Source: a virus. From it: a stretch of 64,000 nt of DNA. The position numbers and the translations under genes were made by a program. Where the stretch lies: IMG/VR virus record IMGVR_UViG_3300028197_001221, positions 61,942 to 125,941 of that record. One strand, written 5' to 3'. The notes under the pieces were generated by a model that saw only the letters and a list, made by a program, of their open reading frames with translations, was not told the DNA's origin and did no database searches. Every line of letters begins with the position of its first letter. The first letter of the stretch is position 1. Positions 8,603 to 64,000 of the stretch are shown here, in pieces.

Positions 8603-8609
8603 AAAAACG

Positions 8610-10663: not shown

Positions 10664-12367
10664 TTATATCCTGTGTATACTAATTGTACTTGAGTCGAGA
10701 AAATTACCTGAAGCTTCTATATAAGCTTTGTCGCCAGAGGCCAGAGGAACGTGCCATACTTTTCCAGCACTAGTAGGATAATCAGTAGCACCAATATACT
10801 GCATATTACCAGTTGTCAAGACTTGATTGCCACTGGTAACTAATCTAAATTCAGCTAGTGGTGATAAAAGTTCTCCACCACTAGCAAGTATGTTTGTACT
10901 AATAGTATATACTCCAGATTTAGGAGCTGAGTAGATATAAGTATTCGTATTAAAACTAGCAGGGTGAGAATTGGATTCTACAACATCAAAATTAAATGTA
11001 GAAAAAGAACTGTATTGTCTTGAAGAATTCATCGCCAAACTATTACCACTACCAACAGCGCTAAAATAAACAGGAGTATGATCTTCAACAAAATTGTCAA
11101 ATTGATTATTAAGAACTTGAACTTTGTTGTCAAACACTCCACTAAAAGTGTCAACTTTATTATCCGTCACCTCAAACTTATTATCGAACACACCACTAAA
11201 GGTGTCAAATTGATTTTCCAGAGCTTGAAAATTATTATCCAAAACATTAAATTTGCTGTCTAGTGTATTGAATTTGTTGTCAAATATACCGCTAAAGGTA
11301 TTAAACTGAGTGTCTAACCTTCCACTATGGTTAATGAAGAATTGGTCTGCTCTTCCAGATTCAGCTATAAAGTGAGATACAATTCTTTCATTGTTATCAC
11401 GATTCCAATCTATAAGATATCCAGAAAGAGCAACATACTTAGTATCCAATTCATCAGCCACAACAGCATCTTTGGCATCCATGATCCCAATTAGATCTCC
11501 AGACGTTACTGCAAGTTGCGTAAGTGTAGCATACTGATCGCTAAGATCAGGAATATCCGTAGCATACAGCTGCCTGAATGAAGGATAGCCTTCAGGACAA
11601 GCTCCATCACAAACTCCCGTTGGGGCTGCGAAAACATAATTAACAGTTTGTTTTTTTAGTAGTGTGTATTCATTGACAACGCCACTGTGTTCTATTACCA
11701 GTGAAGATTTAGAATTATTATCTGTCTGATTGGGCAAGAAGTGTTTATACTGAATGCCGCCCACGTAGGAACTGTCATCTCCATTCGTAGCTCTGAATGT
11801 TACACCACTTATACCTACGTAATAACCACTAGCTCTAACGGCAGATTGTTGAGAACCATCACCACCAATGTCAATACCATAAACGGGGGTATTATTTTGT
11901 AATCCTAAAGATTTAAAATCTTGATTCCATATAAAATCAGAATCAGAATTAATCATATTGGCAGAGTTCCAGAAAGCAACAGAGTGTTGAGATGGAACAG
12001 AGAAATCAGCCAAACCAGAACCGCTATACACAGCATGAGTAGCTGGATAAGTAGCAAATATTTCTTTTGTACCAGTAGTAAAATTAACTAAGCCGTTTAA
12101 ATTACTGCTGGAAAAAGGACTTCTAGTTATATAACTATATGAAACTGTTCCACCATTAGGTAAATCTCCTCCAACTTTATAAAGGACACCGGAACCAATC
12201 TCATAATTTGTTCGATCAGCGATTGCGTAAAATACTGTATCTAAATGGTCAAAAGCATCTCCAAAAGAAGTGAAGCCAGCAACAGCACCAAGCAATCCAA
12301 AATTGCCCTGACCAGTACTAGTGCTAGTTTCTTTTACTCTATCATGTATTTTAACTGTGTTTGACAC
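10664..12367 (-). CDS. Trimeric fibre protein with coiled-coil repeats and C-terminal C1q-like domain
   Basis: N-terminus DRVKETSTSTGQG; xDTFSGVFDNK repeats; C-terminus VYFSA..FNFDVVESN..FNTNTYIYSAPKSGVYTI is C1q-like. GTG start. Confidence 0.7.
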   Translation of the reverse strand: MSNTVKIHDRVKETSTSTGQGNFGLLGAVAGFTSFGDAFDHLDTVFYAIADRTNYEIGSGVLYKVGGDLPNGGTVSYSYITRSPFSSSNLNGLVNFTTGTKEIFATYPATHAVYSGSGLADFSVPSQHSVAFWNSANMINSDSDFIWNQDFKSLGLQNNTPVYGIDIGGDGSQQSAVRASGYYVGISGVTFRATNGDDSSYVGGIQYKHFLPNQTDNNSKSSLVIEHSGVVNEYTLLKKQTVNYVFAAPTGVCDGACPEGYPSFRQLYATDIPDLSDQYATLTQLAVTSGDLIGIMDAKDAVVADELDTKYVALSGYLIDWNRDNNERIVSHFIAESGRADQFFINHSGRLDTQFNTFSGIFDNKFNTLDSKFNVLDNNFQALENQFDTFSGVFDNKFEVTDNKVDTFSGVFDNKVQVLNNQFDNFVEDHTPVYFSAVGSGNSLAMNSSRQYSSFSTFNFDVVESNSHPASFNTNTYIYSAPKSGVYTISTNILASGGELLSPLAEFRLVTSGNQVLTTGNMQYIGATDYPTSAGKVWHVPLASGDKAYIEASGNFLDSSTISIHRI

Positions 12368-12376
12368 TGTTTACTC

Positions 12377-13195
12377 CTATCTGATACTTAGTATTACTAA
12401 ATCATTTTGTTTGGTATTGATGTATTGGTTAAATTTATCTTGCACTGCAAAGGTGCAATGATCCGACTTTCTTATACAGCAAGCAGCATTTATCATATTT
12501 ACTTCTGAATCCGTTTCGTGACCATTGCTTGTGGCTATAGCTATGTAGTCGCCTTCTAAATCTTCATTAAAAACTATTTTAAATCTTCCCTTACTTATTT
12601 CTTCTATTGAACTTACATTAAAAGATGTGTTAACTGTTATTGGGTTTGTAGTTGAATCAAAACTAATCCAAGCGTTTGCAGATCCAGCTACTGATGTTAG
12701 CTTAGATTGATCTGAATCAAAAACTAAACTAGTATTACTAGCAACTAGAACATTTTCTTTTTGGCTAGTATATCTTTTAAATGATATTCCATAATTATTT
12801 ACACCTTTAGAGTTAATCCAAGCATCATTTAATCCTAAATTCCCTGTCATAAAACCGCCAGAATTACTCAATAAAATATCATGAGCGTTTGGCGAGTCTA
12901 AATTTGTAAGATTGTTATGCTCTACTGTATCACTACCCAAATAAGGAACTGTTTGAATAACTTCTGGTGTAGAAGAATTAGGAAACTTTACTCCTATGTC
13001 TAATTTTAAATTAACGTTTTCTGATAAATATATGTTTTTTTTAAATTGAATGTTGGCATTTTGAACTATTGGCATTACAGAATCTACTATATTCAAAGCC
13101 TGTAATAAAAAATCTACCTCTGTTAAGAAGTCTTCTTTTATAAGCTTTGTTGATATTTCATTTCTTAATATTGCAGGATCTGTAAAAATTGTCAT
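12377..13195 (-). CDS. Virion protein, paralog of 13195..14199
   Basis: Shares the QTVPY.G...HN.L.N...MTG.LG segment and a C-terminal A.A.I.F domain with its neighbour. Confidence 0.7.
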   Translation of the reverse strand: MTIFTDPAILRNEISTKLIKEDFLTEVDFLLQALNIVDSVMPIVQNANIQFKKNIYLSENVNLKLDIGVKFPNSSTPEVIQTVPYLGSDTVEHNNLTNLDSPNAHDILLSNSGGFMTGNLGLNDAWINSKGVNNYGISFKRYTSQKENVLVASNTSLVFDSDQSKLTSVAGSANAWISFDSTTNPITVNTSFNVSSIEEISKGRFKIVFNEDLEGDYIAIATSNGHETDSEVNMINAACCIRKSDHCTFAVQDKFNQYINTKQNDLVILSIR

Positions 13196-58605: not shown

Positions 58606-59397
58606 TTAATCCTTTACTGTGTCCGGTGTTAAAAACGGTTGGTCTATGGTTCCATCCTCATACTTGTGTAAAGCTGACAAGCGTTCACCCTCGTTTTTCA
58701 TAGCTGCCCTCATCTTCTCCATCTCAACCCCATATGATTTCATAAGGTCTGGATCTTGCATCATAGAAGCCACCCAGCTAGTAAAACTCTGCTTGCTATC
58801 CTCAAGCCTCTTAATTCGCTGCTCACGGGTTCCTTTCATCTCGCGCAACATACTTGACTTCTTAGCCTGCAACTCCCTGTAATCACGATTTAAGCTTTCC
58901 TGCGATGCCCTCAGAGAAGCCACCTGTCTTTCTAAGTTAATAATATAATCATGATCTTGTTGATCTTTGTCTCTAGATCGTTCATCTTTAATCATGACAT
59001 CATAAGTATTAATCTGTTCTATATTCTCTTTATTACCTTTGAGACATCTATTCATTAATAACTCCAACTTAATCACATCGACTACTTGGAGTTCTTCAGT
59101 TGGAAAGACATCATCTTTAAACTGGGATATAATCCTAGCCCAGTGATATTTGAATAATTCTAATTCTGATTCGGTAAACTGTGATTCTAGTTCAATCCAA
59201 TAGGGACGATCCTGTAGTGAATATGCGGCCATTTCAATCTTATTTAAACCAATTTTTAGTTTTCTCTTTATATATTCCTCTACAGAGTTAACGGACCTAT
59301 CTAATTGTTTAGCTATATCTTCCACTGGCAGACTGTCTGATAGCCTTGCTATAGTACGTCCTTCGTCGTCAGATATCCTACCCTTCTTCATAACCAT
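58606..59397 (-). CDS. HTH plus coiled-coil protein, candidate terminase small subunit
   Basis: N-terminal VEDIAKQLDRSVNSVEEYI HTH, long helices, upstream of terL. Confidence 0.5.
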   Translation of the reverse strand: MVMKKGRISDDEGRTIARLSDSLPVEDIAKQLDRSVNSVEEYIKRKLKIGLNKIEMAAYSLQDRPYWIELESQFTESELELFKYHWARIISQFKDDVFPTEELQVVDVIKLELLMNRCLKGNKENIEQINTYDVMIKDERSRDKDQQDHDYIINLERQVASLRASQESLNRDYRELQAKKSSMLREMKGTREQRIKRLEDSKQSFTSWVASMMQDPDLMKSYGVEMEKMRAAMKNEGERLSALHKYEDGTIDQPFLTPDTVKD

Positions 59398-59872
59398 ACT
59401 CCTCTAATATAATACGTACCGCCTCTAGAACATCAAGTCTACGTTTTTTAGGTGTGTAAATGTTATTAAGTATTTTTAAGTAATCTTCTCTCATCTTAGC
59501 TGGAAGTCTTTTATCTATAATCTTAAATAATTCAGTAGTGTCTACATTATTGTGTTCAGACTCATCACATACAAGGTTATCAAACATAAGCTGTTTAGGA
59601 GAAAGAACTTTACGCTTGTCTTCAGAAGACTTGGTGAAATTATTATCTCTAATAAAGTTTTTAAGCCTGTTGGATAAATTAACTGATAGGAAGTTCTCTA
59701 GGGGGCGTTTTTGATCATAACGGGATAAAGCTTCATAACATATAATAAAAGATTCTTGTTTTATGTCATTTATATCATAACCGTGGAAAGTGTACTTGGG
59801 GGCGATCCTATTTATAACAAGTTCTATTTTTTCTAATACTTCATCTTGATTAAGATTCTTGGGTATCTTCAT
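59378..59872 (-). CDS. Phage-encoded sigma70-family sigma factor (region 2 clear, region 4 degenerate)
   Basis: DIKQESFIICYEALSRYDQKRPLENFLSVNLSNRLKNFIRD matches region 2; start assumed at MKIPK. Confidence 0.75.
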   Translation of the reverse strand: MKIPKNLNQDEVLEKIELVINRIAPKYTFHGYDINDIKQESFIICYEALSRYDQKRPLENFLSVNLSNRLKNFIRDNNFTKSSEDKRKVLSPKQLMFDNLVCDESEHNNVDTTELFKIIDKRLPAKMREDYLKILNNIYTPKKRRLDVLEAVRIILEEYGYEEG

Positions 59873-60587
59873 AAGATATCTTTCTCCATTGTGTACCATC
59901 AAAGAGTTTTAAACACTTGGATGTAGAATCATAAACAATGGAGCCTTCAGTATTCTTTGGCTTTTTAGAAGATTTAAGAGTGAGCTGTGTAAGTGATAAA
60001 GAAGTTATCTTTTTAAATATATCTTTTAGTGATATAGAAACGAGTCCTTCTTTTAACCTGCCTACTAAAGACTCAGCCTCAACATGTAGGGGCGATACAA
60101 TAGCGTCATTCTGACAAACAGGAATAACATGAGAGTCTATCAATATATCTCTTACATTTTGTGGATATACAGATACAAGCATAAATGTAGTATGTTCAGT
60201 AACATCTTCAGTCAATGCTTGCTGTGGAGTTGTTACGTGAGTTACTTCTCCGTCAGAGGGCGACCATTGCATTGGCTGCGCTCTAACAAACAATATGTCT
60301 TCACCTACTTTCTCTAAGTAACCCATTCCAGATTCACCTAGAGATAATTTTTCACCACCGTCATATCTTTCTAAGATATAAAAGAATTTATCGTTATCAG
60401 TATTAAATTGATCAGTAACAGAAGACAATTCATCAGCTCTGGCGAATTGTATTTTAAGTGGGGGAAATATATCAAAAGCTATTTTAGATTTATCGAGCTT
60501 AAAACGTATATGGTCTTTAGTGGATACAAGCACATCAGCAGTCTGGTTGGTCTGTACCTTCAGCTTCCTGTCTACTATTTTGTTCAT
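59850..60587 (-). CDS. Hypothetical protein with a C-terminal fibre-type motif
   Basis: Ends in EGSIVYDSTSKCLKLFDGTQW. Confidence 0.65.
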   Translation of the reverse strand: MNKIVDRKLKVQTNQTADVLVSTKDHIRFKLDKSKIAFDIFPPLKIQFARADELSSVTDQFNTDNDKFFYILERYDGGEKLSLGESGMGYLEKVGEDILFVRAQPMQWSPSDGEVTHVTTPQQALTEDVTEHTTFMLVSVYPQNVRDILIDSHVIPVCQNDAIVSPLHVEAESLVGRLKEGLVSISLKDIFKKITSLSLTQLTLKSSKKPKNTEGSIVYDSTSKCLKLFDGTQWRKISYEDTQES

Positions 60588-60702: not shown

Positions 60703-60727
60703 ATTATAGCCCTTTCTATCAGTATAA

Positions 60728-60734
60728 TACACAC
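60728..60734 (-). promoter_or_regulatory. Putative late promoter GTGTATT at the head of the late region
   Basis: TTTGGT-GTGTATT-ATATAC. Confidence 0.6.
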
Positions 60735-60825
60735 CAAACCATAATAATTGCAACTAACAGGGGCTGACCGAAGAGGATTGGGTAATACATTTACATTTAA
60801 AATTTTTATTGTTTATGAACCACCC

Positions 60826-60841
60826 AGCATTTTTCATGCCA
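60826..60841 (-). promoter_or_regulatory. Sigma54 (-24/-12) promoter candidate
   Basis: TGGCATGAAAAATGCT = GG-N10-GC. Confidence 0.55.
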
Positions 60842-60870
60842 AAACGGGGCGAGAAGTTTAGGTACTAAAA

Positions 60871-60932
60871 GTACACCCCTTTTAATGGGGGTGAATGGGT
60901 TGACCAAAAAACCCCCCGAAATAGGGGGAGGT
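60871..60932 (-). repeat. Double-hairpin cassette, inverted copy
   Basis: Reverse complement ACCTCCCCCTATTTCGGGGGGTTTT...ACCCCCATTAAAAGGGGTGTAC aligns with the copies at 62243 and 63748. Confidence 0.65.
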
Positions 60933-61009
60933 CTCTTTTTGTAGGAATACATAGGGGTATCATTTTGAGAAAATACATGCCGGTATATACTGTACAAATG
61001 TACCCCCTG

Positions 61010-61052
61010 TTGCATTTTGCATTGCATTTTGCACATATCGTAGCATTTTGCA
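61010..61052. repeat. Three direct repeats of GCATTTTGCA
   Basis: TTGCATTTTGCA x2 in tandem plus TAGCATTTTGCA. Confidence 0.9.
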
Positions 61053-61116
61053 TACACGGTCTTATAATGAGAATACAAATATCCCTATATTTATAGGGTT
61101 AAAATAATATCATGAA

Positions 61117-61132
61117 TGGCACAGTAGTTGCA
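61117..61132 (+). promoter_or_regulatory. Sigma54 (-24/-12) promoter
   Basis: TGGCACAGTAGTTGCA, near-perfect TGGCAC-N5-TTGCA, about 47 bp upstream of the first plus-strand gene. Confidence 0.75.
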
Positions 61133-61179
61133 CTATATATATAGTATAAGAAACAATTAACTCTATAAGGAAAATTACA

Positions 61180-61356
61180 ATGTCAAACAACTTTGAAATC
61201 GTTTACTCTTCAGATTGCTGTGGTGCTAACGTACATTCTGACGCTGACCTTTGCCCTACTTGCTTTGAGCATTGTGAGGTTATTGAGGAACGTGTTGATT
61301 ATGACTGTTCAGAAGCTGTACACGCCGCTCAGGGATTAGACTATTTTTCCGCTTGA
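61180..61356 (+). CDS. 58-aa zinc-ribbon protein
   Basis: SDCCGA...LCPTCFEHC; AAGGA RBS; below the ORF-track size cutoff. Confidence 0.8.
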   Translation: MSNNFEIVYSSDCCGANVHSDADLCPTCFEHCEVIEERVDYDCSEAVHAAQGLDYFSA

Positions 61357-61389
61357 CTCATTAAAGTTTATACTGTACAATGTCGATAT
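61353..61389 (+). promoter_or_regulatory. Overlapping sigma70 and sigma28-like promoters
   Basis: TTGACT-N17-TACAAT (61353-61381) and TAAA-N16-GTCGATAT (61362-61389). Confidence 0.65.
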
Positions 61390-61411
61390 ACTTAATAAGG
61401 AGACAACAACA

Positions 61412-61549
61412 ATGACTTACAATTTTGAATACTTCCAAGAATTAGAATCATACGAAGCCCAAGAAGAATACAATATTTGGCTTGACGAGCAAGACGACGA
61501 TATGGTAAGATTGCATGAATCAGAGATGTCCCCAGAGGTAGTAGAATAA
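61412..61549 (+). CDS. 45-aa acidic protein
   Basis: MTYNFEYFQELESYEAQEEYNIWLDEQDDD...; AAGGAG RBS. Confidence 0.75.
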   Translation: MTYNFEYFQELESYEAQEEYNIWLDEQDDDMVRLHESEMSPEVVE

Positions 61550-61707
61550 TGAATGAATACATGGTAACAAGTTTGTATGATGTGCTTGACAGATTCGATA
61601 CACCTAAATTGCAAATGTACTTGTTATGCTGTCAGGAAGAAAAAGAGTTTGACGGTGTACGTGTAGCCGCTAACATTTTACGAATGAGGTTTATAAATGA
61701 AAATTAA
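61549..61707 (+). CDS. 52-aa hypothetical protein
   Basis: TAATG coupling, GAGGT RBS. Confidence 0.65.
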   Translation: MNEYMVTSLYDVLDRFDTPKLQMYLLCCQEEKEFDGVRVAANILRMRFINEN

Positions 61708-61789
61708 TATTGACAGTGATATGTTAAGTGTTATAATATTCTTAGTTGTTACGGTTGTTATGGTATTTATTGAAAGAGGGCTAATCTAA
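61697..61789 (+). CDS. 30-aa membrane peptide MKINIDSDMLSVIIFLVVTVVMVFIERGLI
   Basis: GAGGT RBS, hydrophobic stretch, TAATG coupling to the next gene. Confidence 0.6.
   Translation: MKINIDSDMLSVIIFLVVTVVMVFIERGLI
61710..61737 (+). promoter_or_regulatory. Sigma70 promoter candidate
   Basis: TTGACA-N16-TATAAT with TG extended -10. Confidence 0.55.
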
Positions 61790-61995
61790 TGAGTATTTTT
61801 GATCGACCTGATTTTGACGAGATGTTTCACAATGCGATTTATAATAGTCGCACTGATGAGGTAGACGCTGACATTATCGCAGCGGCTGACGTTGAGCTTG
61901 ATGATTGGGATGATGACTATCAGCCTACATTGTATGATGAGGCACAGGATTTGTATGGTGGCGATGATTACATTGAACAATGGGAGGTAGAATAA
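61789..61995 (+). CDS. 68-aa extremely acidic protein
   Basis: About 23 Asp/Glu versus 2 Arg. Confidence 0.75.
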   Translation: MSIFDRPDFDEMFHNAIYNSRTDEVDADIIAAADVELDDWDDDYQPTLYDEAQDLYGGDDYIEQWEVE

Positions 61996-62183
61996 TGGGA
62001 TTAATTGATTTGAATATTCAGTCTATCGTGATAGGATACGTGGTAGGCGTTGCGTTGATGTGGTCAATTTGTGAAACGTTGTATGGAGACAACAATGAAA
62101 CAAGAGCAGAAAAGGATTCTGAAAATATTCGCCCTCGCTATGATCGCAGGTATCATATGCTGTACGGTGATTCACCTGAATGA
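61995..62183 (+). CDS. Small membrane protein
   Basis: GGAGG RBS, TAATG coupling, hydrophobic N-terminal half. Confidence 0.6.
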   Translation: MGLIDLNIQSIVIGYVVGVALMWSICETLYGDNNETRAEKDSENIRPRYDRRYHMLYGDSPE

Positions 62184-62238
62184 ATGTACAGTAGTTCAGC
62201 CATGCTTCGATCTACCTGCACTATTGCCAGTAGAATAA
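62095..62238 (+). CDS. 47-aa membrane/secreted peptide MKQEQKRILKIFALAMIAGIICC...
   Basis: GGAG RBS, basic N-terminus followed by a hydrophobic segment. Confidence 0.6.
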   Translation: MKQEQKRILKIFALAMIAGIICCTVIHLNECTVVQPCFDLPALLPVE

Positions 62239-62242
62239 GCAG

Positions 62243-62300
62243 AAGCCCCCCGAAAGGGGGGTTTCCCGGCCCGCCCAAAAACCCTCAATTAGAGGGGTAT
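62243..62300 (+). repeat. Double-hairpin cassette (terminator-like first stem)
   Basis: GCCCCCC-GAAA-GGGGGGT-TTC...GGCCCGCC..AAAAACCC...GAGGGGT. Confidence 0.8.
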
Positions 62301-62320
62301 ATAAATAATATAGTATTACC

Positions 62321-62348
62321 TAAAGTAATCCGGTAGGGATGCCGATAT
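62321..62348 (+). promoter_or_regulatory. Sigma28 (FliA/WhiG/SigD)-like promoter
   Basis: TAAA-N16-GCCGATAT. Confidence 0.7.
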
Positions 62349-62373
62349 ATATACTATAGAAAGAAGGTGATGT

Positions 62374-62550
62374 ATGTTGACAATCGTTACACTATTAAGT
62401 ATGTTCGCAGGGTATGAAGGATACAACGACGATAAGGTGTACATAGGTATATATACTCCCACTTGTGAATATGGGTGGGTTATAAAAAAAGATAAAATAT
62501 ACCTTGACAGCGTATATGTAAAAGACTATAATGTAAAACATAAGGAGTAA
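62374..62550 (+). CDS. 58-aa hypothetical protein
   Basis: AAGGTG RBS; MLTIVTLLSMFAGYEGY... Confidence 0.6.
   Translation: MLTIVTLLSMFAGYEGYNDDKVYIGIYTPTCEYGWVIKKDKIYLDSVYVKDYNVKHKE
62504..62532 (+). promoter_or_regulatory. Consensus sigma70 promoter
   Basis: TTGACA-N17-TATAAT, A-rich upstream, 23 bp before the next ATG with an AAGGAG RBS. Confidence 0.85.
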
Positions 62551-62555
62551 CACAA

Positions 62556-62681
62556 ATGTTTACAGAACAAGAAAAACTAGAAATCACTATTGACGGCCTA
62601 CGAAATGGTGATATATTTATGCAAGATGGAATACCAGTTGACGAATACGGCGACCCTATATTTGAGGAGGATCAGGAATGA
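62556..62681 (+). CDS. 41-aa acidic protein
   Basis: AAGGAG RBS; MFTEQEKLEITIDG... Confidence 0.7.
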   Translation: MFTEQEKLEITIDGLRNGDIFMQDGIPVDEYGDPIFEEDQE

Positions 62682-62845
62682 GTAATAATAACTGTGTTGT
62701 ATATCCAAGAAAAAACGTATGGGTTGTAATTGACCTGCAAGGAAATAAGATTGGCGAAGTTGGGGCAATGACAGAAATCGAGGCTAGACAAAAGGTAGCC
62801 GATCATGTTATAATCCCTTTCACACTTTCACACATTGAGGAATAA
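62678..62845 (+). CDS. 55-aa hypothetical protein
   Basis: ATGA overlap, GGAGG RBS. Confidence 0.65.
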   Translation: MSNNNCVVYPRKNVWVVIDLQGNKIGEVGAMTEIEARQKVADHVIIPFTLSHIEE

Positions 62846-62846
62846 A

Positions 62847-63191
62847 ATGCAAGCTAAAGCAAACCCACTGCGATTAATTGAAACACGTTTTGAATTAGAA
62901 AATATGGGAACGGGAAAATATGTTAAACGATACTTTTTTGCTAATGGGCTTGGTGCTAGTGTGGTATGTCACAAGGGCAGTTACGGAGGGGATTCGGGCC
63001 ACTTTGAAGTAGCGGTACTGCAATATCCTATAGGAACCACAGCAGAAAATACTTGTGAGATTGTATATGAAGAGCCAATCAATGATCATCTTGGGATCGT
63101 TGATGTGGCAGGATGGCTTGACTTTTTTGAAGTTGCTGATATACTACAGAAAATAAGAAACTTTGACACAGGAGAATATACCTATGAATAA
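62847..63191 (+). CDS. Conserved phage early protein (F.NG.GASV...SYGG family)
   Basis: YFFANGLGASVVCHKGSYGG...FEVAVL; GAGGA RBS before the ATG at 62847. Confidence 0.75.
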   Translation: MQAKANPLRLIETRFELENMGTGKYVKRYFFANGLGASVVCHKGSYGGDSGHFEVAVLQYPIGTTAENTCEIVYEEPINDHLGIVDVAGWLDFFEVADILQKIRNFDTGEYTYE

Positions 63192-63501
63192 AAATGAATA
63201 CAATGGTTGGTTCAACTATGAAACTTGGTTGGTGAATCTGTGGATGGACAATGACCAAGGGTCACAGGAGATGTGGCGAGAACATGCTAGAGAATCTATT
63301 GATGCAGACGAAGGTTGTAATTGGTTCTACTTTGAGGAAAGACTAAAAGAATACCTTGACATGCTCATCGAAGATATGGATAATGGCATAGCGTCTGGAT
63401 TGGCTCATGATCTTATTGGTGCTGCTATTTCAGAAGTAAACACTAGAGAAATATCAATGTCGTGGATTGAAAACGAACTCGAAAACGCAGAGGTAGAATG
63501 A
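63184..63501 (+). CDS. Conserved phage early protein (YNGW.NYETW family)
   Basis: YNGWFNYETWLVNLWMDND; AGGAG RBS before the ATG at 63184. Confidence 0.78.
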   Translation: MNKNEYNGWFNYETWLVNLWMDNDQGSQEMWREHARESIDADEGCNWFYFEERLKEYLDMLIEDMDNGIASGLAHDLIGAAISEVNTREISMSWIENELENAEVE

Positions 63502-63761
63502 TGAACGGATACGAACTACTAGAACAACTGAAAAAGGATGTTAAGGAATGTTTCACCGTGCCAAACGATTGGCTACCTGAAGAGTTCCGCGACAATAGGA
63601 GCGACAGCGTTTCACTCGCAGACGTAGAACGAAAGTGTGACGCACGGGACAGATGTACACTATCAAGTTTTGAAGAAGAAGCTATTGAACGTGCGAAGCG
63701 TGTACAGGCGTACAGGTCGCAAAACGACAGAGGATTGGAAATCACGTACCTCCCTCGATAG
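63498..63761 (+). CDS. Hypothetical protein
   Basis: 87 aa, ATGA overlap. Confidence 0.7.
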   Translation: MMNGYELLEQLKKDVKECFTVPNDWLPEEFRDNRSDSVSLADVERKCDARDRCTLSSFEEEAIERAKRVQAYRSQNDRGLEITYLPR

Positions 63762-63807
63762 GGGGGTTTCGTGGCCCGCCTAAAAACCCCACCAATGAGG
63801 GGTGTAT
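63748..63807 (+). repeat. Double-hairpin cassette
   Basis: ACCTCCCTCGATAGGGGGGTTTC...GGCCCGCC.AAAAACCCC...GAGGGGTGTAT. Confidence 0.8.
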
Positions 63808-63853
63808 CACCTGACCCGTCAGGGTCACATATAATAAAATAGCCAGCAATTCC

Positions 63854-63892
63854 TAAAGTTTTATTTGACATAATGACGATATATGTTATAGT
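63854..63892 (+). promoter_or_regulatory. Overlapping sigma28-like and sigma70 promoters
   Basis: TAAA-N17-GACGATAT (63854-63882) and TTGACA-N16-TATAGT (63865-63892). Confidence 0.6.
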
Positions 63893-63910
63893 AGAGAGAA
63901 GGAGATAATA

Positions 63911-64000
63911 ATGAAAAAAGTATATCAGGAAATAATGATGTCGTTCTATATAGAAGATGAGAAAGATATAGACGAAGTATTATTTGAGATGGAAGTTGAC
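63911..64000 (+). CDS. Hypothetical protein, truncated at the window edge
   Basis: AAGGAG RBS, MKKVYQEIMMSFYIEDE... Confidence 0.65.
   Translation, partial: MKKVYQEIMMSFYIEDEKDIDEVLFEMEVD

Follow-up and report, generated by a model that had tools for sequence, protein, structure and literature searches.

Predicted early promoters of an uncultured marine phage carry a sigma-28-type two-box code often interleaved with sigma-70 promoter boxes

Phage early promoters are usually pictured as strong sites for the primary sigma factor of the host. Promoters of Bacillus subtilis SigD and Streptomyces WhiG have the form TAAA-N15-GCCGATAT, and the phage T4 late sigma factor gp55, which resembles sigma domain 2, reads a promoter with only a -10 element and does so with helper proteins. 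For the sigma-28 class as a whole, the consensus listed in the promoter table of PMC2859248 and quoted in PMC7286023 is TAAAGTTT-n11-GCCGATAA, n11 being the nucleotides (nt) between the two 8-mers. Here we describe three sites built on this two-box plan in IMG/VR virus record IMGVR_UViG_3300028197_001221, a 125,941-base sequence from an uncultured marine phage. We analysed its terminal 64 kilobases (kb) (64,000 nt; record positions 61,942 to 125,941), hereafter the window, whose coordinates are used unless record bases are named. The sites lie at the start of the rightward genome arm, each shortly before an open reading frame (ORF), and two of them are interleaved with sigma-70 promoter boxes.

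The pattern TAAAGT-N15-17-CGATATA has exactly three matches in the window, all on the plus strand (61362-61390, 62321-62349 and 63854-63883; sites 1 to 3). In 100 dinucleotide-preserving shuffles the motif was never recovered (mean 0.00, largest 0), which rejects chance as its origin. Neither word is enriched singly (CGATATA 11 against 7.4 expected, CTAAAGT 20 against 15.9 expected), so the signal lies in their pairing at a fixed distance. An earlier reading of the window by a model working from the letters alone (the sequence-only reading) had reported three copies 20-30 bp before start codons, with spacers of 16, 16 and 17 nt after TAAA. Its coordinates and spacers, which are longer than canonical, are correct, and the ATG follows the last base of CGATATA by 21, 24 and 27 nt (ATG at 61412, 62374 and 63911). 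The genome-wide motif count that it had proposed was made as a looser TAAA-N14-18-CGATA[TA] scan of the whole record; only five further matches appeared, none with TAAAGT and all within ORFs of the ORF list. In 8-mer notation the sites read TAAAGTTT-n12-GTCGATAT, TAAAGTAA-n12-GCCGATAT and TAAAGTTT-n13-GACGATAT. The first box agrees with TAAAGTTT at 8/8, 6/8 and 8/8 positions and the second with GCCGATAA at 6/8, 7/8 and 6/8, with CGATA invariant, which places them with the -35 and -10 elements of the sigma-28 class; GCCGATAA itself also occurs in sites of relatives. Against the sigma-70 consensus, site 1 scores 10/12 and site 3 scores 11/12 at the overlaps that had been noted at two copies (TTGACT-17-TACAAT and TTGACA-16-TATAGT), and site 2 has no such pair. 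Two plain sites, both lacking the TAAAG and CGATA boxes, score 12/12, that at 62504, already recognised as perfect, and a second at 61710. Thus, of the claim that sigma-28-like promoters are nested with sigma-70 promoters, the oriented, fixed-spacing, consensus-matching element and its interleaving at sites 1 and 3 stood, and the identity of its reader is a prediction.

We next turn to relatives, for which 72 IMG/VR loci (862,905 b) were collected through the phage sigma gene described below and not through the motif. In a census of unique TAAAGnnn-n-nnCGATA[AT] sites with reversed sequences as control, n12 spacers were found at 32 sites and n13 at 17, with a single n11 and at most two sites at any other length from 8 to 18; the reversed sequences gave 0-3. 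Every intergenic-looking site in these loci is on the early strand, opposite the sigma gene, and 35 of 50 unique sites stand 13-54 nt ahead of an ORF start with a Shine-Dalgarno sequence. Five near-complete relatives hold 46 sites against 10 in the control, strongly strand-biased and mostly within ~20 kb of the sigma gene. An exact-motif scan of IMG/VR returned at least 132 stretches, many from the same contigs, and the contexts listed were mainly cTTGACAnnTAAAGTttnnnnTGTAgAATGTCGATATA.

The sigma-70 boxes around the element fall into two registers. At 15 of 49 unique sites a full sigma-70 pair is placed as at site 1, with its -35 box starting 8-9 nt upstream of TAAAG; at 25 of 49 the pair is placed as at site 3, with the -35 box 10-13 nt downstream of TAAAG and inside the spacer; and the remaining arrangement, like site 2, has no sigma-70 pair (9/49). 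The spacing between the two boxes is maintained in each of these arrangements, which shows that they belong neither to the spacer nor to the discriminator of a sigma-70 promoter. By these patterns of sequence they are an independent, asymmetric and oriented bipartite element of promoter-like form. Conservation among orthologous copies differs between sites: in seven copies of site 1 everything from TTGAC through the Shine-Dalgarno sequence is invariant while the upstream flank diverges, and in five copies of site 2 only TAAAG and TG.CGATATATA are invariant, spacer and flanks being variable.

These alignments also bear on a different view, in which the boxes would be the binding site of a phage or host regulator that sits over sigma-70 promoters and shuts off or tunes early transcription, with no starts of its own. 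The overlap with a full sigma-70 pair at 40 of 49 sites is operator-like, and the site-1 orthologues, conserved from the -35 box to the Shine-Dalgarno sequence, allow no function to be assigned to single boxes. However, the boxes are not arranged as a palindrome or a direct repeat, they hold their own spacing in two sigma-70 registers, they occur without any sigma-70 pair at 9/49 sites, and at site 2 they lie behind a terminator module. They are also always co-oriented with the downstream gene, and both match a known promoter class. The conservation pattern is that expected of a sigma-read promoter, unlike that of a palindromic or repeat operator, and we consider the regulator-site view quite improbable.

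The explanation that we favour, and to which we give about an even chance of being right, is that the sites are early promoters carrying a sigma-28 code, with a host sigma-28-family holoenzyme as the likeliest reader. Sites 1 to 3 would then be functional promoters, each driving a short early transcription unit and each written in the sigma-28 (FliA/SigD/WhiG) two-box code, which at sites 1 and 3 would be interleaved with a near-consensus sigma-70 promoter and at site 2 would act alone. Relative to TAAAG, the sigma-70 -35 box starts 9 nt upstream at site 1 and 11 nt downstream at site 3, an interleaving that would allow either holoenzyme to bind but never both together, with starts ~8-12 nt apart. 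Early genes would fire both in cells with an active sigma-28-type factor and in cells dominated by the primary sigma factor. The phage's own sigma factor, in which only domain 2 is recognised, would most likely be made early from a sigma-70-type promoter and would then serve the late arm through the -10-only word TTTGTGTATAAT, the TAAAG/CGATA code being left to the host sigma-28-family factor.

A host reader is favoured, without being proven, by viruses outside this clade. At least eight unrelated viral records (G041-G048; 11-118 kb; loci L312, L313, L278-L280, L242, L243, L273-L277, L282, L283, L305 and L306) have canonical boxes of the form TAAAGTTT-n11-GCCGATA arrayed ahead of small genes, amounting to 36 sites against 0 in the control and nearly all with n11 (for example, 11 in one 30-kb record). 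TTGACA is nested in the spacer at some of these sites, and GTATAAG-like bases often follow downstream. Neither a FliA-like sigma nor the clade sigma was found in the eight records, and seven of them gave no sigma-70-family match at all, the other giving a weak one.

The sequence-only reading had offered a phage-encoded FliA-like sigma as an alternative reader and had called for a search for additional phage sigma genes. The FliA-like factor did not materialise: neither FliA_WhiG (TIGR02479) nor Sigma70_r4 matched at an expect value (E) of 1 or below in six frames of the record, which is 81% complete. The search did recover one divergent sigma, encoded on the minus strand and present in every relative checked. 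Its 164-amino-acid (aa) ORF probably has its true start at 59872, since relatives begin there. It scores 25.1 bits against Pfam Sigma70_r2 (cut-off 24), and a match to NCBIfam sigma70-ECF (E 1e-7) is below that family's cut-off. Searched against solved structures, its profile found sigma region 2 weakly (best E 0.0011), and in an AlphaFold model (predicted local distance difference test score 77) residues 2-80 superimpose on sigma domain 2 with Z 8.5-9.9 and a root-mean-square deviation of ~2 Å over 70-79 residues. The ORF gave no match to Sigma70_r4 or r4_2, its three unassigned C-terminal helices (112-158) not having been searched as a separate domain. A 245-aa ORF (59850-60587) of FliA-like size was considered as a sigma candidate and rejected; it has no family match, is poorly conserved and has a C-terminus that by eye resembles tail-fibre motifs.

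Directly downstream of the sigma gene lies a gene for a 263-aa protein whose conservation greatly exceeds that of the sigma (53-98% identity across matched loci). Its weak matches are to Sigma70_r4_2 (E 0.0067, below cut-off), Terminase_5 and a PHROG labelled D5-like regulator, and a fold search with its model gave no match at E <= 0.001, the weak rows including LuxR-type regulators and the HK97 small terminase. This protein may be a regulator or a small terminase, and it is conceivable that it and the 164-aa protein make up a two-part sigma.

These two proteins raise the prospect that the boxes are read by the phage's own sigma, with the helix-turn-helix of the 263-aa neighbour possibly serving as a separate -35 reader, which we judge unlikely but take as a serious competitor. 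In this scenario a sigma-70 promoter would supply the sigma early, and the sigma would go on to re-use or boost the early and middle units, with sites that lack sigma-70 boxes switched on as delayed-early genes. The clade sigma is present in 8/8 large motif-bearing records searched and in 9/9 motif-bearing clade records in a second search, the strict 12-13 spacer is unlike the canonical 11, and in G036 and G034 the boxes extend ~28 kb along the same strand from the record start. A TGTATAAT-type site precedes the sigma operon in 31 of 41 loci, several of those listed having a TTGAC-like -35 (uncounted), and with such a sigma-70-type site in many relatives the protein can be an early product of host sigma-70; the conserved neighbour, too, opens with a helix-turn-helix that is the source of its weak Sigma70_r4_2 match. 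Yet it would be a striking convergence if a barely recognisable sigma read both pan-bacterial sigma-28 boxes. No region 4 was detected in it, the 263-aa protein has no clear fold match, and the sigma is absent from all eight unrelated viral records with boxes. All motif-bearing clade records share ancestry, so that co-occurrence with the phage sigma is weak evidence. A narrower version, in which a minimal domain-2 phage sigma, perhaps with the 263-aa helix-turn-helix protein, has adopted the sigma-28 code in a form whose spacer is lengthened by 1-2 nt, we regard as doubtful and less probable still.

The late arm may offer this sigma a different word. TTTGTGTATAAT tops the k-mer list for 161 late-arm upstream regions of relatives (GTGTATA 30, TGTGTAT 29), and 51 aligned sites of this word have no conserved -35, an arrangement that would suit a factor with sigma domain 2 only better than a -35/-10 code does. 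The sites lie mostly at two orthologous positions, one of which overlaps the end of the ClpP gene, which makes this modest evidence. Given that no r4 or FliA_WhiG match was obtained, that only domain 2 is recognised and that the late word is distinct and -10-only, the phage sigma is by its sequence a poor fit for the -35/-10 code. In the record itself, the word in the form TTTGTGTATA(A/T)T was seen on the minus strand at 8603, 48087, 51189, 53289 and 60733 and on the plus strand at record base 277; it stands 15-45 nt ahead of the terminase gene, the next gene, a capsid-region gene, a tail-region gene and the sigma operon, and is a candidate late promoter.

Some relatives encode more than one sigma-like protein, which brings in a further possibility, that the sites are served by another polymerase form, for example a factor delivered with the virion, or a further phage sigma whose gene falls within the 19% that the record lacks. 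Relatives G033, G034, G035, G036, G038 and G040 have further sigma-like ORFs with canonical region 4, additional small sigma genes of relatives lie at L229:1166-1822, L230:1190-1750, L231:765-1235(-), L232:649-1128 and L233:482-961(-), and our record breaks inside its early region. However, the additional sigmas comprise at least two kinds, encoded at differing genome positions, and none with region 4 was found in this record or in G000, G037 (94% complete) or G039, three records that each carry the boxes or the primary sigma. Being heterogeneous and absent from the latter three, the relatives' second sigmas are unlikely as a common reader. A virion polymerase within the giant proteins was also considered and set aside, as Pfam gave only FG-GAP, glycine-rich and tape-measure-like domains and no polymerase domain there, with the limit that divergent polymerases can escape sequence searches. 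Taken as a whole, another polymerase form seems to us very unlikely. Bases 1-33,500 of G038 show almost no synteny with G000 and give no clue to the content of the record's missing part.

Several observations weigh against a host sigma-28-family reader. Besides the regular presence of the clade sigma, the window's spacers of 12, 12 and 13 nt between 8-mers depart from the 11 nt of the class. Sigma-28 factors can tolerate an n12 spacer. Seven of the eight unrelated records are fragments (6-80% complete) in which a sigma gene may be missing, and the single complete one has only two sites. The record studied here is itself classed as linear and 81% complete by IMG/VR-style metadata and breaks inside the early region, so that further sites may be missing. 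The host, moreover, is hinted at by one gene alone, a DUF1559/N-methyl prepilin-like gene outside the window (record bases 11595-12626, L001) that occurs in one of nine clade records, namely this one. A gene in a metagenome-assembled genome of an uncultured marine Planctomycetaceae shares 63% identity with it, on a contig whose flanks are not phage-like; possibly acquired from a host, the phage gene could encode a mimic of a surface or secretion component. Among 31 genomes of this candidate host family Flagellin_N gave no match, and TAAAG-N14-16-GCCGATA was unenriched (10 against 17 in the control). The targeting of a flagellated stage of a motile or dimorphic host, put forward in the sequence-only reading, thus drew no support from these genomes.

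The same 31 genomes all have a FliA_WhiG-type sigma above cut-off. In Chlamydia, sigma-28 bound two genes, as summarised in PMC12282069, and a similarly tiny regulon would leave no genome-wide signal, in which case the unenriched motif would weigh less. No transfer RNA (tRNA) genes that could serve as a host clue were found in the record stretches scanned.

The coordinates of the sites and of the neighbouring features are collected in Table 1.

Table 1. Promoter-like sites, terminators and regulatory genes at the start of the two genome arms (window coordinates)
Feature	Position	Strand	Details
Site 1, composite promoter-like	61353..61390	+	sigma-70 boxes TTGACT 61353-58, TACAAT 61376-81, spacer 17
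Site 1, sigma-28-type boxes	TAAAGTTT 61362-69, GTCGATAT 61382-89	+	spacer 12; ahead of ORF 61412-61549
Site 2, sigma-28-type boxes alone	62321..62349	+	TAAAGTAA 62321-28, spacer 12, GCCGATAT 62341-48
Site 3, composite, other register	63854..63892	+	TAAAGTTT 63854-61, GACGATAT 63875-82, spacer 13
Site 3, sigma-70 boxes	TTGACA 63865-70 (within spacer), TATAGT 63887-92 (downstream)	+	TTGACA-16-TATAGT
Plain sigma-70 consensus promoter	61710..61737	+	TTGACA-16-TATAAT, 12/12, without TAAAG or CGATA boxes
Plain sigma-70 consensus promoter	62504..62532	+	TTGACA-17-TATAAT, 12/12
Two-hairpin terminator module	60877-60927, 62238-62297, 63752-63802	.	three copies, GGGGGGTTTC..GGCCCGCC..AAAAACCC-hairpin
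Sigma-54-like promoter	61117-61132 (feature 61009..61132)	+	TGGCAC-N5-TTGCA; ahead of ORF 61180-61356
Leftward sigma-operon promoter-like site	60722..60753	-	TTGCAA-18-TATTAT, includes TGTGTATTATAC
Phage sigma factor, 164 aa	59378..59872	-	sigma domain 2; no region 4 detected
263-aa protein directly downstream of sigma gene	58606..59397	-	N-terminal helix-turn-helix, then three long helices / coiled coils

The three terminator copies split the region into a series of short units, and transcription of each would resume at one of the promoter-like sites. The second copy closes the site-1 transcription unit and is followed by site 2, which has no sigma-70 -35 box and precedes ORF 62374-62550; the third copy lies just 5' of site 3, which precedes an ORF that starts at 63911 and is cut by the contig end, an architecture that recurs in relatives. 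From its T-runs the second hairpin of the module reads as a minus-strand terminator, and the module may be a bidirectional insulator between early cassettes. In the relative locus L005 a composite TAAAG/CGATAT promoter lies 227 nt past the copy of site 2, and in the window the plain 62504 site lies 183 nt past it, the positions being compared unaligned. In an RNA-labelled contig of one sequencing run the site-3 region (63870) is joined to the 62556 ORF through a different composite promoter, which suggests that promoter-gene cassettes are shuffled among relatives.

The sigma-54 site that had also been reported is present in sigma-54-like form, and the ORF behind it encodes 58 aa that are double-zinc-ribbon-like. 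Three GCATTTTGCA repeats at 61009-61053, 65-120 nt 5' of this site, resemble the arrangement of sites for an enhancer-binding protein; Pfam scans of the record showed no sigma-54 activator gene among their results. A ATATATATA(G/C)TATA stretch occurs at 61135-61148, after the sigma-54 -12 box, and again at 62345-62358, after the CGATAT of site 2; it may be a -10-like box of the sigma-70 type, or else an element common to both start sites or leaders.

By its ORF list and Pfam scans the record has the gene content of a large tailed phage. The rightward arm runs from 61180 past the contig end and then on from record base 1, with small ORFs without family matches followed by genes for ribonucleotide reductase, dUTPase, PhoH, RecA, DnaB, primase, a split DnaE and glycosyltransferases. 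The leftward arm begins near 60750 and holds the sigma-like gene, ClpP, the large terminase and structural genes, together with genes for a 2646-aa tape-measure-like protein and for adhesin-like proteins that reach 4540 aa. Position beside the divergence point, small orphan ORFs and dense strong promoters lead us to infer that the opening 3 kb of the rightward arm most probably forms the early region. The record ends at window position 64000 inside an early ORF, which leaves the early region and its promoter set incomplete in the assembly. A circular record was considered and rejected, as no repeat is common to both ends and the ORF at the window end has no sensible continuation at base 1.

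We found no close relative in a set of 50,697 isolated phages: positions 60800-64000 had no megablast match, tblastn with the phage sigma gave none at E <= 0.01, and terminase identity to isolated phages was at most 26% among the matches listed. Contigs assembled from 24 marine or seawater runs (18 studies) contain the stretch. Four RNA-labelled runs (three studies) gave contigs that cover parts of 61316-63603 and 63812-64000, for the most part with 90-95% similarity, which points to an origin in relatives; as assemblies these contigs cannot show starts and may reflect DNA carry-over, and nothing was concluded from them.

Together, these data describe a clade of abundant uncultured aquatic phages of ~110-170 kb that adds an alternative-sigma code to its predicted early promoters at a fixed geometry, and several unrelated viral records that use the canonical form of this code in arrays, with little or no sigma-gene signal detected. 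If a host sigma-28-type factor is the reader, early expression would be tied to cell state, for example to motile or developmental cells, and this promoter grammar could help to predict the hosts and infection timing of uncultured phages. If instead a minimal phage sigma reads the boxes, they would be a new case of sigma mimicry, and the early and middle promoters would be written in a phage-read dialect that overlaps host sigma-70 promoters.

Compared with the sigma-28 class 3 flagellar promoters of Escherichia coli/Salmonella and of Pseudomonas aeruginosa FliA, as tabulated in PMC2859248 and quoted in PMC7286023, the phage sites have the same boxes in the same order and orientation, a CGATA core that is likewise invariant, and a position just 5' of short leaders. 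They differ in a spacer of 12-13 rather than 11, in a last base that is mostly T at sites 1-3, and in lying in an early region, mostly interleaved with sigma-70 boxes, where dependence on sigma-28 is predicted. The -10 box of site 2 is exactly the GCCGATAT of SigD and WhiG promoters in the form given at the outset, whereas the window has N16, N16 and N17 after TAAA and its host is apparently not a Firmicute. The non-flagellar sigma-28 of Chlamydia, a member of the Planctomycetes-Verrucomicrobia-Chlamydiae (PVC) superphylum, offers the example of such a factor without flagella and with a very small regulon, the two bound genes coming from chromatin immunoprecipitation followed by sequencing (ChIP-seq) as summarised in PMC12282069. 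A factor of this kind would explain a FliA-type sigma in 31/31 candidate-family genomes without a flagellin match or motif enrichment, although we found no link between the phage and Chlamydiae. Like T4 gp55, the 164-aa phage sigma has domain 2 as its only recognisable domain and accompanies a late arm with a -10-only word; neither in sequence nor in fold was it matched to gp55, and the late word would be linked to the phage sigma by analogy of form. Full-text literature searches found no paper describing such nesting, which is not proof of its absence. The kind of element is known, and it is its systematic nesting in predicted phage early promoters, at spacers of n12-13, that is new.

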